Virus record (IMG/VR): IMGVR_UViG_2737471843_000006
Coordinates: 1-11,594 of that record
Strand: one strand, 5' to 3'
Length of the DNA stretch: 11,594 nt
Origin: a virus
Taxonomy: Duplodnaviria; Heunggongvirae; Uroviricota; Caudoviricetes
Below the pieces are notes generated by a model. That model had not been told where the DNA came from, did not search any database, and saw only the letters and a program-made list of their open reading frames with translations. The position numbers were made by a program, and so were the translations under genes. This document shows, piece after piece, positions 1,307 to 10,007 of this stretch. Within the stretch, counting starts at the first letter, position 1; the number at the start of each line of letters is the position of its first letter.

Positions 1307-3748
1307 TTAAAAATCAACCGGATTCGGGATCAGTTTTTGCCAGATAGCTGAAACGTATTTTGCCTGGTAACGAGCGTCATCAAGTGCATTATGGCGCTCA
1401 CCTTCGAATGGAATAGCCGTTCTGGCATCGAAGTCTATGGCTTTCCCCAGCTCAACGATTGTGCGTACATCGCGATCGTTGTAGTAACGCCACGGGCAGG
1501 GGATCCCCTGCCGTTCGTATGAACGGCGCAAAATCGTGTTGTCGAAGTTGGCTCCATTTCCCCAGACCTGAACAAAAAATTCACCGGAGTTTTCGTCGAT
1601 AAATTCCCGCAATTGTAACAGTGCATCATCTAACGGGATTTCATCGGTCATAATGGCAGATTGCGCTTCGCGTGATTGCTTAAGCCACCATTTAATGGTG
1701 TCCCGATCAATGACTCCGCCAGCAGTTTCCAGATCGATAGTCTTACTAAATTCCGGTCCCATATCTCCGGTTTGCGGATCGAAAAATATTGCACCTATTG
1801 AGATGATCGGGGCATCAGGATTTTTTCCCATGGTTTCAAGGTCGATCATTAGATGGTCACACGTCCTGCTGGTGGATGTGATTTCGTGATGACCGTTCAC
1901 CTTAATTGAGTGATCTGCCGTCTCGCCAGTTTTATTATCGCTGGCGTGATGCTGATTGCCGCCAGGGTTCTCCTTGTGTGGATGTTCAGCGCCTTCCATT
2001 TCCTCCGGATCATTTTCCTGAACTTCAACCTGATTCTCTTCATCGAATGTTTCCTGGTATGTTGCGTCGCCCATCACCGCGCCACAATCAGGGCAGTTGC
2101 CGCCACCGCTCTGACCGCAGGCGGTGCAGACTTTTTCCGGTTCCTGTTGCGCTACTGGTTCGGATTGTTTCGTTTCTGGCTCGTTTTGTAACGCATTTGG
2201 GCTGTTTTGTTCCGCTTTTTGGTCGTTCCGTTCCGATTCATGCTGGTTCTGGTTCACAGAATCGCGAGTCTGGATCCCCTTGACCCATTTCGGATCATTA
2301 GGGTCGCTAATCCCCTCAACAAATTCACCACGCGATACAGCAAGTAACTTATCGGCGTCAGGCTGGCTGATATTGGCTGCCTGCATAATTTTGTTTACTT
2401 CGTCAGCGGTGACTTTTACTTGGTTAGCGGAACTCACCTGCGACTGAGCATCCAGCGACTGCGCGTTCTGGCCATGTTCAGTTGTATCCGGTTCCATTGT
2501 TTCAGTTGTTGCCTGTTCACCTGCCATTGCGTCAGATGGTTGTGGTTTTTCTTCTTCTGTTTCACGCTCAGTAACCACCTCGCGGTTAATTTCTTCCAGG
2601 ATATCTTTTTCCGGCGTATGCCGGGCAGCTGTGAGAGTTTCCTTGCTGGGGTTCTCGTGATCAGTTTCCGTCAAATAGGCGTTGATATACCCCTGAAGGC
2701 GTCCCGGGTAGTGATAAAATTCAGGGTGTGCGCTTCGGATAAGTGCAAAAATAGCGGCGCGGGAATAGTCCAGAATACCCGGGGTTGCACGAAGTGCTGC
2801 GGACCATTCTTTGAACGGACTTTCTTTGTTCAGGACTACTTCTTTTGCGCGACGATAAACGCTGCCCGGAATTTCATAAATATTAAAATCCATCGGAAGT
2901 GTGGCTGCTGCAATCTCCACATCCAGTGTGTCGAGGGTGTGTACTAAATTCGGATTGCGATCGGTTTTGTTCCCACCGCCAGCATTAGCACCGGAAGCCG
3001 TGCGGGTGATGCGTGAAACACGATTTCCTTTCATCCACTCTTTTGTCAGCAGACCCCGATCAGTGTAGTCAGCGTCCAGGTATGCTTCGAAAAAAGCAGT
3101 TATTAGTCCCAGGTCTGAATTACCAGGATTAGGGAAAACTTTGTCAGTGTCACGAACCAGTTTGTGGAGGTCGCGAATCTCCAGCGAGTCGAGCAGACTG
3201 GTTTTATGCGAAATAGCCAGGGCAGTAACAGCCGGTAGTTCTTCAGCCCGTGCAATGTGTAATGCCTGGAGTTCGTCGCGTGAAACGTGCGTTACTGGTT
3301 TTTCGCTGCCGTGTTGAGCAAGCCAACGAATGGGCAGTTCCTGACCGGAGACAGGCAGAAGCATGCTCTCCTCAATCTCAGTCATGTCTTCGCCGTTGAT
3401 GTTGGTATTGTCAGTGCTGGCTGGTTTGTCCTGAACAGAGGGGGAAGGGCCGATAAATGTCATTGTGATGCCATCTTTCCCGCCTTTTTCATAGCGGTTG
3501 CAGAATTCAGTATCAAACACGCCTTCTGGCGGAAGGTCGTCAACAACGGGCAAATTGACGCGGACGGGTTTTTTAAAGTCGTCTTCATCATAATCGTTGT
3601 CATCCATTGCGGTAATGCAGCGGGAGATTGCAACAGATAATTTTTTTGCTGTAGTCCAGTAAAAACCACCTTTAATTCCCAGGCGTTTTCTTACTTTGTC
3701 ATTTTTTGCTTCGCAATATAGTGCAAATTCTTCTTTATCAGTGCTCAT
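1307..3748 (-). CDS. Large prophage nuclease (813 aa): unknown N-terminal domain, acidic/Q-rich linker with CxxC-x8-CxxC zinc ribbon, C-terminal DEDDh (DnaQ-like) 3'-5' exonuclease domain
   Basis: Long ORF with GAGG SD 10 nt upstream of the ATG at 3748. C-terminal motifs match Exo I ([10 protein letters not shown]), Exo II ([12 protein letters not shown]) and Exo III ([12 protein letters not shown]). Central region is low-complexity E/Q/D-rich and contains [16 protein letters not shown]. Proteins in this position are often annotated exodeoxyribonuclease VIII-like. Confidence 0.8.
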
Positions 3749-3841
3749 TATTGGTAAACCTCATCACAGATTTAAGGGTGAACAAATCTCTGCCATTGCT
3801 GACATATAAGAATGAAACTGGATATTTATTACGGTGCTGTT

Positions 3842-4033
3842 TTAAAATCCTGCCGGGATTTCGTTATTATCCTGGTGAATAACTTTATCGACCGGATAAC
3901 AGTTGCCTGGAATTTTCTGTTCGGTTGCTGCTGCCATACATTCCTGCATTGTTCTGTGAACACTGACTGCAATATCAACTGGCTCTCCGGAAACAAGAAA
4001 AACCGTCAGAATAAGTGCAAATACTGGATTCAT
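3842..4033 (-). CDS. Small exported or membrane protein (63 aa from ATG at 4033)
   Basis: ATG at 4033 preceded by AAGGA SD. Hydrophobic N-terminus MNPVFALILTVFLVSG looks like a signal peptide or TM helix with no lipobox Cys. Start overlaps the stop of the upstream gene (ATGA, 4030-4033). The track ORF begins at an earlier in-frame ATG (4087) with no SD. Confidence 0.45.
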   Translation of the reverse strand: MNPVFALILTVFLVSGEPVDIAVSVHRTMQECMAAATEQKIPGNCYPVDKVIHQDNNEIPAGF

Positions 4034-4218
4034 TGTGCACATCCTTTTGGCATCAGACGTAAACGGGCCAGCATTGAAACAATGCATACTTTATTTAATA
4101 ACTCCCGTTCGTGTTTTCTCTTGTTAATGGCATCTTCAGTAAATATAGGGTTACTGATAGTGACACCAATTTCAAAACAACCTTCAGACGTATTAACGTT
4201 TGGTAATAACGTTTTCAT
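4030..4218 (-). CDS. Hypothetical small protein (62 aa)
   Basis: ATG at 4218 with GAGGG SD 8 nt upstream. Sequence MKTLLPNVNTSEGCFEIGV...LMPKGCAQ. Translationally coupled to the downstream small exported protein. The track ORF extends to a GTG at 4323 with no SD. Confidence 0.45.
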   Translation of the reverse strand: MKTLLPNVNTSEGCFEIGVTISNPIFTEDAINKRKHERELLNKVCIVSMLARLRLMPKGCAQ

Positions 4219-4439
4219 TATCGCGCCCTCAACAATGAGTTTTGTGATGCGGTGCCTGGTGCCTCCAGGTGACGTTAACCAGTTAACAATTAACGCCGGA
4301 TACAGAGAATCCACCCATAACACTGTTTTTGGTTTTAACTGTTCCGCGTGCGCTCAGCCGCATTCACCACATCACAAAATTCACTTTAAAAAGGGCGGCA
4401 GAGCAGTCACGGAGTAAAACTGATACCGCCAAACGTCAC

Positions 4440-4786
4440 CAGAAAATTGATAACAGAGGGCGTTGCAGCGGGGTTGTCACTTAAGCGTATGGTCAACCTG
4501 ACAACCCGGTGTCCTCAACGGGGGAAGGAATAACCCCGCCATACTTACCGCCTCGCCATTTCGCGGATTGCCACAACCGGAAGCGCACGGTCGACGAAAA
4601 TTTAACGACAGGCTATCTATGAACCAGCTACCTCGCCGTGCGCTTTCGCGTTATGGTCTGACTTTTCAGGGAAATATCCTTTCAGTAAACTGTCAGTGCC
4701 GGATGCTCACCCGTGTCCGGCGCACGCACTCCACCTCACCCGTGGAGAACTCCTTAATTACCAACCTTAGCTTCGTTGGTTAGCTA
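4440..4786. other. Structured GC-rich non-coding region inside the early-left operon (candidate ncRNA, terminator or processing region)
   Basis: No ORF of 60 aa or more with an SD on either strand between 4219 and 4786. Perfect 9-bp inverted repeat GGGTTGTCA (4471-4479) / TGACAACCC (4499-4507). GC hairpins at 4519-4538, 4696-4723 and 4760-4780. Confidence 0.3.
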
Positions 4787-5005
4787 TTAACGCGGGTATG
4801 TAATCATTCTGGCAATGCTTAATGCCGCTGCTTTTTCCAGCCTGGTGATATCCTGTTCCAGAGCGGACAGATTTTCAGCCTGCTTAGCCCTGGCTTCATT
4901 GGCCCATTTCAGATCCTGCGCTGCATTAATTTTCTGGCGCATCCACTCATAAAGTTCATCATCGGTATAGTCTGGTGCGATGATGACGGGTTCTCGTTTC
5001 TGCAT
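4787..5005 (-). CDS. Hypothetical small protein (72 aa)
   Basis: ATG at 5005 with GAGGAA SD 7 nt upstream, stop TAA at 4787-4789. Part of the leftward chain of small genes downstream of the pL-like promoter. Confidence 0.5.
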   Translation of the reverse strand: MQKREPVIIAPDYTDDELYEWMRQKINAAQDLKWANEARAKQAENLSALEQDITRLEKAAALSIARMITYPR

Positions 5006-5034
5006 ACTGATTCCTCGCGGTGCTGTTTCGCTTA

Positions 5035-5163
5035 TCAGCCGTTAGATTTTGCCGAGCTGGAAAGCGCCTGTTTAAATTCGTTGAAGCTGAGAGCTTCTTC
5101 GCCGTCGGCAAGACCTTCGAAGTATTCTTCATAAGCCTTTTCCATGATTGTGTCGAAATCCAT
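5035..5163 (-). CDS. Hypothetical acidic mini-protein (42 aa; not in the ORF track)
   Basis: ATG at 5161-5163 preceded by AGGTGA SD, one nucleotide after the stop of the upstream gene (TGA 5165-5167). Translation MDFDTIMEKAYEEYFEGLADGEEALSFNEFKQALSSSAKSNG, stop TGA at 5035-5037. Confidence 0.35.
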   Translation of the reverse strand: MDFDTIMEKAYEEYFEGLADGEEALSFNEFKQALSSSAKSNG

Positions 5164-5164
5164 A

Positions 5165-5401
5165 TCACTCACCTGAGTTTCTTTCCAGCCAGCGACGGGC
5201 ACCATTTTCGGTTTTAAACGTTTTGCTTTTGGTATACGTCATCGCGGTGAACGTACCGTCCTGGTTGGGGAACACGCCACATACCAGAGATTCGCTGTTG
5301 CCAAGATCGATAGTATCCATGCTGACCTCATTTCCCCTTAACGCCGGGGTAGCGGAACAAAAACCTGCTGCATAGTTATTAAAGTTGAACCCTGCCGTCA
5401 T
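5165..5401 (-). CDS. Hypothetical small protein (78 aa from ATG 5401; alternative start at 5320 gives 51 aa)
   Basis: First gene downstream of the pL-like promoter. ATG 5401 has GAGG about 9 nt upstream; the internal ATG 5320 (MDTIDLG...) has a better-placed GAGG 6 nt upstream. Stop is tightly coupled to the next ORF. Confidence 0.4.
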   Translation of the reverse strand: MTAGFNFNNYAAGFCSATPALRGNEVSMDTIDLGNSESLVCGVFPNQDGTFTAMTYTKSKTFKTENGARRWLERNSGE

Positions 5402-5501
5402 GTTCTTACGCCTCGGGCTGGCTACTTAACCCCTGACCACTGCCTGGTAACTCGAGGTATTGCCCTGTATTGTGTGGGACGGGATGGGTTGGTATGGGAA
5501 A

Positions 5502-5546
5502 ACTATAGGAAATGCCTAATTACTTGTCAATAGGCTATGCCTAATA
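5502..5546 (-). promoter_or_regulatory. Left operator/promoter (OL/pL-like): -35 TTGACA (minus; plus 5524-5529), 16-bp spacer, -10 TATAGT (plus 5502-5507), overlapping operator palindromes
   Basis: Operator AATAGGCTATGCCTAAT at 5529-5545 and weaker site at 5504-5520, centres about 25 bp apart. 5524-5545 is the exact reverse complement of 6168-6189 on the other side of the repressor gene. Confidence 0.5.
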
Positions 5547-5638
5547 ATTTGGGCGCAACCTAATAGGTGATGGTTTGTGGGAGAGGTAGTAGGAGTTAAC
5601 TAACGGGAACTAGGAATTTCCCGTCGGACCATATAAGT

Positions 5639-6115
5639 TTAAGTTCCTGTCTTGGTGATGTTCTGGCTTTTCCGTTTTGATTCTTGATTTTTCAGATAGT
5701 TAGCTACCTTCATTTCCATTGCGGCAATGTAGGCGCGAACGTCATGATCAACCCAACTAGGCTCCGTAGCATTTCCAGATAAGATGAAAGCCACAATTGC
5801 TCTTTTTTCATCAGAGGCGGCTTGATAAAGGCTGTTTATGTCTAAAAGTTCACTTTTTGTATCTGAAGTGGATGGGGTTGGTATGGGGTATTCGTTAAGC
5901 CCCCAATGCTCTGGACCAACCACATCAGAAAAGAAACGCCATAGTTCTGGAAGTTTGTCTTTACTTATCGAACCTTTCTTAATCCAGTCATGGATTGATG
6001 GTGGTTGGACTTTGAAATGACGTGCGATTTCCGCCTTTGATTTGACGGCTCCTGATGCAATTTTTTTGTTAATGGCCTGCTCTATCGCTCGGCCTAAGTC
6101 TTTACCACTAAGCAT
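5639..6115 (-). CDS. racR: Prophage repressor, HTH (XRE/cI-like) DNA-binding protein, RacR-like (158 aa)
   Basis: N-terminal HTH AEIARHFKVQPPSIHDWIKKG. Transcribed divergently from a Cro-like gene, with operator palindromes on both sides. Size and arrangement fit the racR-ydaS-ydaT module of Rac-type prophages; the symbol rests on architecture and memory, not on a search. Confidence 0.8.
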   Translation of the reverse strand: MLSGKDLGRAIEQAINKKIASGAVKSKAEIARHFKVQPPSIHDWIKKGSISKDKLPELWRFFSDVVGPEHWGLNEYPIPTPSTSDTKSELLDINSLYQAASDEKRAIVAFILSGNATEPSWVDHDVRAYIAAMEMKVANYLKNQESKRKSQNITKTGT

Positions 6116-6142
6116 TGCTTAATAGTCTCCTATGCGCATCGC

Positions 6143-6212
6143 GTTAGGCAATCCCTACTCTCGATGTATTAGGCATAGCCTATTGACAATTTAATTAGGC
6201 TAAGCCTAATAT
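6143..6212 (+). promoter_or_regulatory. Right operator/promoter (OR/pR-like): three operator sites and -35 TTGACA (6183-6188) / -10 TAATAT (6207-6212)
   Basis: Perfect palindrome ATTAGGC-TAA-GCCTAAT at 6194-6210, near-palindrome ATTAGGCATAGCCTATT at 6168-6184 and a weaker site at 6143-6159, centres 25-26 bp apart. The -35 and -10 overlap the operators. Confidence 0.55.
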
Positions 6213-6239
6213 TGTTGCGTGTTTTTTGGAGTTCATTCG

Positions 6240-6563
6240 ATGAAAAAAGATAACTATTCATTCAAACGAGCTTGTGCTGTTGTCGGTGGGCAATCAGCAA
6301 TGGCTAGGCTTTTAGGTGTATCTCCTCCAAGCGTAAATCAATGGATCAAAGGTGTACGTCAGTTACCTGCTGAGAGATGTCCTGCGATTGAACGAGCAAC
6401 AAAAGGTGGTGTCCTGTGTGAAGAACTTCGTCCTGATGTTGATTGGACATACTTACGACGCTCGTCATGTTATTCGCAGAATATGTCGATGAAGCAACCA
6501 AATGACGAAAACGATCATACCCGAAGCATCAAGAGGCAAATGATTCATGAAAATCAAACATGA
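6240..6563 (+). CDS. ydaS: Cro-like HTH regulator, YdaS-like (107 aa from ATG 6240)
   Basis: GGAG SD 9 nt upstream of ATG 6240. HTH SAMARLLGVSPPSVNQWIKG, with a recognition helix similar to that of the repressor. First gene of the rightward operon from the pR-like promoter. The track ORF starts at 6219 with no SD. Confidence 0.75.
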   Translation: MKKDNYSFKRACAVVGGQSAMARLLGVSPPSVNQWIKGVRQLPAERCPAIERATKGGVLCEELRPDVDWTYLRRSSCYSQNMSMKQPNDENDHTRSIKRQMIHENQT

Positions 6564-6972
6564 GCACATCCGCATGGCGATGAATGCCTGGGCATACCCT
6601 GATGGTGAGAAAGTTCCTGCAGCTGAAATAGCCCGGACTTATTTCGAACTGGGGATGACGTTCCCTGAACTGTACGACGACAGCCATCCGGAAGCCCTGG
6701 CCCGTAATACCCAGAAAATTTTCCGTTGGCTGGATAAAGACACCCCTGATGCTGTTGAAAAAATGCAGGCTCTGTTACCGGCGATCGAAAAGGCGATGCC
6801 GCCTTTGCTGGTGGCCCGTATGCGCAGCCACAGTTCTGAATATTACCGTGAGATCGTCGAACGGAGGGATCGGCTGGTGAAGGATGTCGATGATTTTGTT
6901 GCGTCAGCGGTTGTTTTGTATGACCAGATGAATCGCGGCGGCCCGGCAGGGAATGCTGTGGTGATGCACTAA
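6547..6972 (+). CDS. ydaT: YdaT-like protein (141 aa), proposed CII-like regulator or toxin of Rac-type prophages
   Basis: Start overlaps the ydaS-like gene by 17 nt, with AAGAGG upstream. Size and position match ydaT. Sequence MKIKHEHIRMAMNAWAYPDGEK... Confidence 0.7.
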   Translation: MKIKHEHIRMAMNAWAYPDGEKVPAAEIARTYFELGMTFPELYDDSHPEALARNTQKIFRWLDKDTPDAVEKMQALLPAIEKAMPPLLVARMRSHSSEYYREIVERRDRLVKDVDDFVASAVVLYDQMNRGGPAGNAVVMH

Positions 6973-7997: not shown

Positions 7998-8420
7998 GTG
8001 GCAAAAGTTTTTACACAAGAAGAGCGGGAAAAAATTAAAGGGCAGGTTGTTGAACTCGTACGCCAGAGTGGGCGCGAGACGTTACGACAACTGGAAACTA
8101 AAACTGGGGCAACAAGATATCTGATGAGCGTTCTCGCCAGAGAGCTGGTTGCCAGTGGCGACGTATATAACTCCGGCTACGGGTTATTACCGTCAGAACA
8201 GGCTCGTAAGGACTGGCAAAATGCCCGCAAAAAACTATCCAGGGCAAAGGTGAAGAAACCATCTGTGGTTGATCCTGACCTTATCTGGTCATTACCTGAC
8301 GGAGAAATACGTCGCTACGACAGGAGTATGAACATAATCTGTCACGAGTGCCGGAAGAGTGAGGTTATGCAGCGAGTGCTGGCGTTTTATCAGGGTAATT
8401 ATCAGGAGGTGATGCTGTGA
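7998..8420 (+). CDS. Hypothetical protein (140 aa), possible winged-helix DNA-binding protein, coupled to the downstream methyltransferase
   Basis: GTG start at 7998 with AGGAGG SD at 7988-7993. Segment RETLRQLETKTGATRYLMSVLARELVASGDV is HTH-like. Its stop TGA (8418-8420) overlaps the GTG start (8417) of the methyltransferase. Confidence 0.55.
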   Translation: MAKVFTQEEREKIKGQVVELVRQSGRETLRQLETKTGATRYLMSVLARELVASGDVYNSGYGLLPSEQARKDWQNARKKLSRAKVKKPSVVDPDLIWSLPDGEIRRYDRSMNIICHECRKSEVMQRVLAFYQGNYQEVML

Positions 8421-8890
8421 GTGCACCGGCAACCATTCTTGATATGTGCTGCGGCAGCCGCATGTTCTGGTTTGATAAGAATGACGACCGGGCGATATTT
8501 AGCGATATCAGAAAGGAAGAGCACACATTGTGTGATGGACGACGCCTGATTATCAGTCCTGATCTGATAGCTGATTTTCGTGCACTACCATTTGCAGACG
8601 CATCTTTTTCGATGGTTATATTCGATCCTCCGCATCTTGAGCGTGTTGGTGATAACGCCTGGATGGGAAAGAAATATGGACGGCTGAATAAAGATACCTG
8701 GCGTGATGATTTGCGGCAGGGATTTAAAGAAGCCTTTCGTGTGTTGCGTCCATACGGCGTTCTGATTTTTAAATGGAATGAAACGCAAATACCTGTTCGC
8801 CAGATATTGGTGCTGACCGACAGAAAACCTGTTATCGGTCAACGAACAGGAAAAAACGATAAAACCCACTGGATTATTTTTATGAAATAG
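8417..8890 (+). CDS. Minimal SAM-dependent methyltransferase (157 aa) with DPPH catalytic motif; likely orphan DNA (N6-A or N4-C) or nucleic-acid amino-methyltransferase
   Basis: Motif I-like ILDMCCGSRMFWF (G-x-G type SAM loop), acidic motif II (IFSDIRKEE) and motif IV VIFDPPH. No obvious target-recognition domain. AGGAGG SD 7 nt upstream of the GTG start. Confidence 0.7.
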   Translation: MSAPATILDMCCGSRMFWFDKNDDRAIFSDIRKEEHTLCDGRRLIISPDLIADFRALPFADASFSMVIFDPPHLERVGDNAWMGKKYGRLNKDTWRDDLRQGFKEAFRVLRPYGVLIFKWNETQIPVRQILVLTDRKPVIGQRTGKNDKTHWIIFMK

Positions 8891-9036: not shown

Positions 9037-9513
9037 ATGCAAGAAATCAAAGAAAATATCAGGCAACAGCTTTACGGGTTTTATATTGCTTATGATTTGT
9101 GGCTGAAGAACGGGGCAAAACCCGGCGGAGTGTTTTCTCAAAATTATGGTTTATGCGCCAATCTTTTCGATTATCTCACATTAATTGGTACCCCCTGTGA
9201 GGCAGCGCTGGAGCAATTACACGCTGATTTCAGAAGTGCCGGGCTGAATGAGGCGTTGCCGTTTAACGAGGGTAAAGAGCATTACCATGAAGAAAGAGGG
9301 CACAACATGTGCCATATGAATCCGGCACGAGTGGCGTGGGTCAGGGCGCAGACAGGGCAGCCAGCGCCGGAAGGACTGGTTAAAGCGGTGCGTTTTTATG
9401 AGCAGGTAAAACGTGAGAACCCGCCAGTCGAAACAGGAGCATGGAAAGACGCTGTTGACTGGGTGCTCAAAGAGGCTTGCCAGGCTGTAAACATTGGCAT
9501 CAAAGGAGAGTGA
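9037..9513 (+). CDS. Hypothetical protein (158 aa)
   Basis: ORF starts after the AT-rich intergenic region and SD-hairpin arrangement. No motif I can name. Stop TGA (9511-9513) lies 2 nt before the next ATG. Confidence 0.6.
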   Translation: MQEIKENIRQQLYGFYIAYDLWLKNGAKPGGVFSQNYGLCANLFDYLTLIGTPCEAALEQLHADFRSAGLNEALPFNEGKEHYHEERGHNMCHMNPARVAWVRAQTGQPAPEGLVKAVRFYEQVKRENPPVETGAWKDAVDWVLKEACQAVNIGIKGE

Positions 9514-9515
9514 GA

Positions 9516-10007
9516 ATGCAAATTTCACCGGTTACTCTTCGTGTTGCGAAGGCGTTTATATCCAGACATCACCGACACAATAAACCACCTGTTGGGCATA
9601 AATTCAGCATTGGTCTGATAAATGATGCCGGAGAATTGATAGGTGTGGCGACAGCTGGTCGACCTGTTGCACGACATTTGGACGATGGATTAACGCTTGA
9701 AGTAAATCGCACATGTACCACAGGAGAACGCAACGCTAACAGCGCGCTTTATGGTGCTGTCTGGCGAGCAGCAAAAGCTATGGGTTATCAACGTTGTATT
9801 ACGTACACCCAGGCAGATGAATCAGGAGCATCTCTTCGCGCAGCTGGTTTTGTTCGTGTGAAAGAGCTTCCTCCAAGAAAAAGCTGGGCGGAATCAAGCG
9901 TCGCCCTGCGGAGTAAACGCGATCCGGTCGGAAACGGTGGTGTTCCTCGTGTGCTCTGGGAAATCAGGAGAATGAGTACCACTGGCATTCGCATCAAAGG
10001 AGAGTGA
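9516..10007 (+). CDS. GNAT-fold-like protein (163 aa), possible N-acetyltransferase
   Basis: ATG 9516 with AGGAG SD 7 nt upstream. Segment LEVNRTCTTGERNANSALYGAVWRAAKAMGYQRCITYT fits the GNAT beta4-loop-alpha3-beta5 core, but the canonical Q/R-x-x-G-x-G/A motif is not clear. Confidence 0.5.
   Translation: MQISPVTLRVAKAFISRHHRHNKPPVGHKFSIGLINDAGELIGVATAGRPVARHLDDGLTLEVNRTCTTGERNANSALYGAVWRAAKAMGYQRCITYTQADESGASLRAAGFVRVKELPPRKSWAESSVALRSKRDPVGNGGVPRVLWEIRRMSTTGIRIKGE

Follow-up and report, generated by a model that had tools for sequence, protein, structure and literature searches.

Positions 3842 to 4218 of the 11,594-nucleotide stretch of virus-derived DNA analysed here (hereafter the window) almost certainly hold dicB and ydfD, which encode the small proteins at the distal end of the early-left dicBF operon in a Qin-like lambdoid prophage of E. 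coli. We found nothing that contradicts this identification. Judged from its sequence, the stretch is a dicBF module with predicted functions in division inhibition and lambda exclusion and with a predicted lysis peptide, set within an early-left arm with a RacR-type immunity region. The genes, a small RNA (sRNA) named DicF and the operon have already been described and are named by standard annotation pipelines. A preliminary description of this DNA had suggested that the gene pair could be new; it is instead the dicB-ydfD pair annotated in E. coli K-12, and the region matches about 86% of complete E. coli genomes.

Two overlapping genes on the minus strand

The interval contains two open reading frames (ORFs), whose coordinates were checked on the minus strand of 3600-4500 and against a six-frame ORF list.

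4030..4218, minus strand: ORF A, dicB, 62 codons for 62 aa; ATG at 4218-4216, TGA at 4032-4030
3842..4033, minus strand: ORF B, ydfD, 63 codons for 63 aa; ATG at 4033-4031, TAA at 3844-3842

Both ORFs have SD sequences in minus-strand reading: GAGGG at 4230-4226 for dicB, with a 7-nt spacer to the ATG, and AAGGA at 4046-4042 for ydfD, with an 8-nt spacer. The two frames overlap in an ATGA at 4033-4030, where the TGA of dicB is shared with the ATG of ydfD. A gap of 93 nt separates ydfD from the next gene, an 813-aa exonuclease that starts at 3748. The preliminary description had reported two coupled small genes with these coordinates, SD sequences and ATGA overlap, and direct reading of the minus strand bore out every position. 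Its hydrophobic N-terminus on the second gene is likewise present: the sequence, as it quoted, is MNPVFALILTVFLVSG, in which the longest run without charged or strongly polar residues spans 14 aa (residues 3-16).

The longest ORF in the interval lies on the opposite strand. This plus-strand frame of 201 aa (3812..4417) is antisense to both genes and to DicF, and its length could make it the real gene, with the minus-strand ORFs as its shadow. We regard that reading as having next to no chance of being right. The 201-aa ORF has no Pfam match at E<=1, and stops break it in 41 of 56 distinct related segments, whereas the minus-strand frames match curated families and show an excess of third-position variation. 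We therefore rejected the plus-strand frame as a shadow ORF.

A longer form of YdfD was also rejected. Many metagenome gene calls use an ATG at 4087, inside dicB, which would give a protein of 81 aa (3842-4087). The Pfam match begins only at residue 22 of that form, and the 63-aa form, which RefSeq and K-12 use, has an SD of its own.

The proteins match curated families and K-12 orthologues

DicB matches Pfam PF05358 over its full length (1-62/62) at 134.2 bits, against a cut-off of 27 (E=1.2e-39), and NCBIfam NF049927, 'cell division inhibition protein DicB', at 132.9 bits (cut-off 100). It is identical at 59 of 62 residues (95%) to DicB of the Qin (Kim) cryptic prophage of K-12, and the only changes, V25I, Q36H and I44V, are conservative substitutions. 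Residues 1-24 are those of K-12 DicB, so the N-terminal segment (about residues 1-14), which is essential for division inhibition (PMC4967827), is intact. The window gene resembles its Qin counterpart in length (62 aa), in its place between DicF and ydfD, and in the ATGA junction. It differs in lying within a prophage that has RacR/YdaS/YdaT-type immunity rather than DicA/DicC, and in having an intact exonuclease, xis and int downstream of dicB-ydfD.

YdfD matches Pfam PF07358 (DUF1482) across all profile positions (1-57/57) at 87.9 bits (cut-off 25; E=4e-25), and phrog_1092 over its full length (E=7e-37). It shares 56 of 63 residues (89%) with the K-12 protein that RefSeq names 'lysis protein YdfD', and some relatives carry the label YebW family. 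The best 19-residue Kyte-Doolittle mean is 1.89, and the C-terminal part is acidic, with 7 D/E and 3 K/R. Residue conservation was assessed over 43-76 homologues. G16 is invariant, and C32 and C45 vary hardly at all, even where identity falls to 47%; the window protein has all of the family residues, namely the hydrophobic N-terminus, G16, C32, C45 and the QKIPGNCYPVDK core. In common with K-12 YdfD it has 63 aa, the hydrophobic N-terminus, the G16-E-P motif, both cysteines and a position after dicB.

Four of the seven differences from K-12 YdfD fall in the hydrophobic N-terminus (S3P, A4V, V6A, V8I), two in the C-terminal part (T34A, I57N), and one, L63F, at the last residue. For the K-12 protein, PMC8835842 reports a loss of plate lethality with L63A, which weakens lysis, or with deletion of the last residue (deltaC1), so how strongly the window protein, with F63, would lyse cells is not certain. 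The F63 form is the commonest allele among the 88 loci that we collected, 29 of which have the exact window sequence; the C-terminal residue of YdfD therefore varies naturally.

Other annotated sequences agree with these assignments. A RefSeq record identical to the window at every base of 3700-4500 has both ORFs annotated as dicB and ydfD, and sequenced phages such as Tritos have DicF, dicB and ydfD annotated in the same order. A PDB sequence search (E<=1) returned no solved relative of either protein.

The pair lies at the end of a dicBF operon

The genes around the pair, and the elements that accompany them, are arranged as follows.

1307..3748, minus strand: exonuclease, 813 aa; Pfam Exonuc_VIII (residues 57-189) and an Rv2179c-like 3'-5' exonuclease domain (residues 632-803)
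4393..4444, minus strand: DicF sRNA; Rfam RF00039, 76.7 bits (gathering score 48), E=6.6e-16, full model 1-52
4787..5005, minus strand: ydfC, 72 aa; phrog_1744 (E=1.9e-39), colinear with ydfC of the annotated records L001 and L002
5035..5163, minus strand: ydfB, 42 aa (RefSeq); phrog_2061 (E=1.9e-36), maps onto the RefSeq ydfB of L002
5165..5320, minus strand: ydfA, DUF1391, 51 aa (RefSeq); Pfam PF07151 (E=2.9e-27) and the RefSeq annotation of L002
5502..5530, minus strand: promoter-like site, TTGACA-17 nt-TATAGT; 11 of 12 consensus positions, the best site in 3600-5700
5639-6115, minus strand: RacR-like repressor; NF049929, 246 bits
6219-6563, plus strand: YdaS-like Cro, divergent from the RacR-like repressor
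6547-6972, plus strand: YdaT-like gene, divergent from the RacR-like repressor

DicF lies 175 nt upstream of dicB on the same strand and carries its own terminator, a stem-loop followed by a T-run. The sRNA represses the ftsZ and manX mRNAs and is processed from the same operon transcript. With DicF directly upstream, the identification of dicB is immediate. The preliminary description had the gene pair right but missed this sRNA. DicF and about 270 nt of flank (4250-4525) are identical to K-12, against differences at 3-8% of bases in the coding sequences nearby, a pattern that suggests constraint on the processing structure.

In minus-strand order the arm reads RacR-like repressor, promoter-like site, ydfA, ydfB, ydfC, DicF, dicB, ydfD, exonuclease, xis and int. 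The open frames of two of the upstream genes are longer than their RefSeq forms: that of ydfB reaches ATG 5205, and that of ydfA extends to ATG 5401, with the PF07151 match covering residues 29-76 of the long ORF. The segment 3749-4786 is colinear with K-12 and 98% identical to it. In K-12 the operon is driven from one promoter, upstream of ydfA, and a transcript covering ydfABC-dicFB-ydfD has been detected (PMC10448788). The promoter-like site at 5530..5502 sits between the repressor gene and ydfA and, by this position, is a candidate equivalent of dicBp/pL. A terminator scan yielded no convincing terminator after ydfD; the same scan also overlooked the longer-looped terminator of DicF.

Downstream of ydfD the window has the intact exonuclease, a DUF4224 excisionase-like gene (xis) and a tyrosine integrase (int). 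At the position of the exonuclease K-12 has ydfE, a truncated 'exonuclease' pseudogene, and then IS2. The early-left arm of the window is apparently intact.

The immunity region (5639-6972) is of the Rac type, unlike that of K-12 Qin, where the DicA/DicC pair controls dicBF. Since the repressor is RacR-like and not DicA, the published DicA/Rem regulation is not directly transferable. From its gene content, we conclude that the window carries the early-left arm of a Qin-like lambdoid prophage, with the dicBF operon, and that this arm meets a RacR-type immunity region at a mosaic junction. Matches to complete E. coli genomes never cover more than 70% of the whole window in one place, as expected of lambdoid prophages, which are mosaics.

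Two plus-strand genes further along the window, at 8417-8890 and 9477-10007, were noted in passing for their apparent DNA-modification functions. One has weak methyltransferase-domain matches, and the other, of the XF1762 family, has a sub-threshold Mom-like match (23.8 bits against a cut-off of 27.1).

The pair is conserved and under purifying selection

Among 5426 complete E. coli genomes, 4648 have a match to the 801-nt stretch 3700-4500; in 3778 the match covers at least 80% of it, and the median is two places per genome. For a closer comparison we assembled 88 related loci (80 from IMG/VR, 6 from GTDB and two from RefSeq), chosen as carrying a ydfD relative. Every one of the 88 has dicB immediately upstream of ydfD, with two open frames that meet in an ATGA junction. 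The Nei-Gojobori estimate of pN/pS, pooled over 23 alleles of each gene, comes to 0.31 for dicB and 0.26 for ydfD, and variation in both genes is in excess at third positions. Both frames are under purifying selection. Conservation among related prophages had been named in the preliminary description as a check on the pair, and these counts and ratios support it. With matches to curated families, intact frames and the ATGA in every locus, and these pN/pS values, the pair is beyond chance.

The family is narrow. Among the best 120 database clusters, identity is at least 67%, and a GTDB scan placed dicB-ydfD in Escherichia and Shigella only, plus one contig of a Veillonella metagenome-assembled genome (MAG). 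That contig, JAGZPX010000007.1 ('Veillonella parvula'), carries a pair with 93-97% protein identity to that of the window; most likely it comes from an E. coli prophage and was misbinned. A divergent pair occurs in PPompW phages, as at 1783-2156 of phage PPompW_132418, with 61% (DicB) and 47% (YdfD) identity to the proteins of the window. By annotated coordinates the 4-base overlap persists there, and so do the hydrophobic N-terminus, G-E-P and both YdfD cysteines; the pair would be a useful outgroup for mapping essential residues.

We considered whether dicB and ydfD have lost their function and are decaying with a cryptic prophage, so that recent common descent alone has preserved them. The K-12 operon does sit in a defective prophage with a broken exonuclease and integrase downstream, and many dicB and ydfD alleles are more than 90% identical, which limits the depth of comparison. 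Against decay stand the frames intact at every locus with pN/pS of 0.26-0.31, the persistence of the pair with the same overlap at 47-61% protein identity, its presence in sequenced phage genomes such as Tritos and mEp460, the intact exonuclease, xis and int that flank it in the window, and the experimental activity of the K-12 copies of both genes. Taken together, these observations make a decaying relic very improbable.

Functions known from K-12 and a model for the operon

Work on the K-12 orthologues indicates what the window proteins may do. K-12 DicB binds MinC and brings it to midcell through ZipA, whereupon MinC depolymerises the Z ring and cells filament (PMC6832061). Its interaction with MinC also inhibits ManYZ, so that DNA of lambda and other ManYZ-dependent phages fails to enter and cells are about 100-fold resistant to them (PMC6832061). 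By analogy with this orthologue, the window DicB would likewise bind MinC, cause filamentation and inhibit ManYZ.

YdfD expressed alone causes rapid lysis of dividing cells and kills the host (PMC8835842, citing Masuda et al. 2016); the results of Masuda et al. 2016 (PMC5975272) are given here as relayed by PMC8835842 and PMC11430063. Lysis is prevented when division is stopped by co-expressed DicB or SulA (PMC8835842). YdfD is reported to bind and inhibit IspG in the MEP isoprenoid pathway; supplying additional ispG or HMBPP relieves lysis (PMC8835842). Carried over from a K-12 protein that differs at 7 residues, division-dependent lysis and IspG binding may also be properties of the window YdfD.

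These reports bear on the functional class that had been guessed from the letters alone, a division inhibitor, exclusion factor or host-killing factor. The guess was sound: DicB inhibits division and excludes lambda and ManYZ-dependent phages (PMC6832061), and YdfD lyses cells (PMC8835842). The assignment to a particular protein was not, since division inhibition and exclusion had been tied to the hydrophobic peptide and belong to the soluble DicB; deletion of ydfD has minimal effect on lambda exclusion (PMC6832061).

We propose a regulatory scheme on this basis. With the prophage repressor bound, the operon would be silent. The promoter at 5530..5502 would be under the RacR-like repressor, and derepression would give one polycistronic transcript. 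Ribosomes finishing dicB at the TGA within ATGA could then restart on ydfD. From the geometry of the junction we infer translational coupling of dicB and ydfD. The invariant 4-base overlap would couple YdfD to the synthesis of DicB, such that the lysis protein would never be made without the division block that restrains it.

Small genes with comparable activities are known from other phages. DicB resembles lambda Kil and Rac KilR, prophage-encoded division inhibitors directed at FtsZ, which are also small genes in a pL-type operon, between immunity and recombination/integration genes, and also cause filamentation. The resemblance comes without a sequence relationship, as Pfam, PHROG and NCBIfam profile searches gave no Kil family match. 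Kil acts on FtsZ/ZipA directly, whereas DicB acts via MinC. PADLOC defence models gave no match for DicB, YdfD, YdfA, YdfB or YdfC.

YdfD can also be set beside phiX174 E, Qbeta A2 and phage M LysM, since it is small and lyses growing or dividing cells through a block in envelope precursors rather than wall degradation (the framing of PMC8835842). It differs from these single-gene lysis proteins in lacking homology to them and in its origin: the tailed temperate phage that encodes it has holin-endolysin lysis as well. Another difference from that group is the reported target, since IspG acts upstream of the peptidoglycan pathway.

YdfD export or anchoring as an alternative

Some features of YdfD raise the prospect of a different location and target. 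YdfD could be exported, with a Sec signal peptide cleaved after V-S-G16, or held as an N-in/C-out anchor; its C-terminal part would then be periplasmic and act on a division-linked envelope target, and YdfD would not be an IspG inhibitor. The hydrophobic core, at only 14 residues, is short, and is shorter still in homologues with FLNTG. Signal peptidase I sites follow a -3/-1 rule with small residues. V14-S15-G16 fits this rule, and the invariant G16 has V, S or T nearby. The excess of acidic residues in the C-terminal part (7 D/E against 3 K/R) disfavours a cytoplasmic location under the positive-inside rule. C32 and C45 persist as near-invariant cysteines at 47% identity, and YdfD lysis depends on ongoing division (PMC8835842). 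The IspG model fits poorly with the short signal-peptide-like core, the acidic C-terminal part and the two nearly invariant cysteines.

The published evidence for IspG nevertheless comes from several assays, namely pull-down, ITC, FRET and rescue by ispG or HMBPP (PMC8835842), and IspG is cytoplasmic. The n-region of YdfD has neither K nor R, and position -3 is N in many homologues, which is odd for a cleavage site. An AlphaFold2 model built on a 43-sequence alignment (mean pLDDT 57, pTM 0.31) is uninformative and too poor to judge the fold or the proximity of the cysteines. On balance we consider export or anchoring unlikely. Whichever location holds, the identification of dicB and ydfD is unaffected.

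A broader proposal can be built on the same features. YdfD would be an exported or C-out peptide with a cysteine pair and an envelope target at the division site, and dicB-ydfD would be a brake and trigger used by functional lambdoid phages rather than a relic. This combination is more doubtful than export or anchoring by itself. If it were true, DicB would arrest division and hold YdfD lysis back until division resumes.

Implications

The value of the identification lies in giving the stretch its correct label; as a discovery it carries little weight. For specialists, the points of interest are the topology and true target of YdfD, and the ATGA overlap as a possible means of producing a lysis protein together with the DicB that neutralises it.
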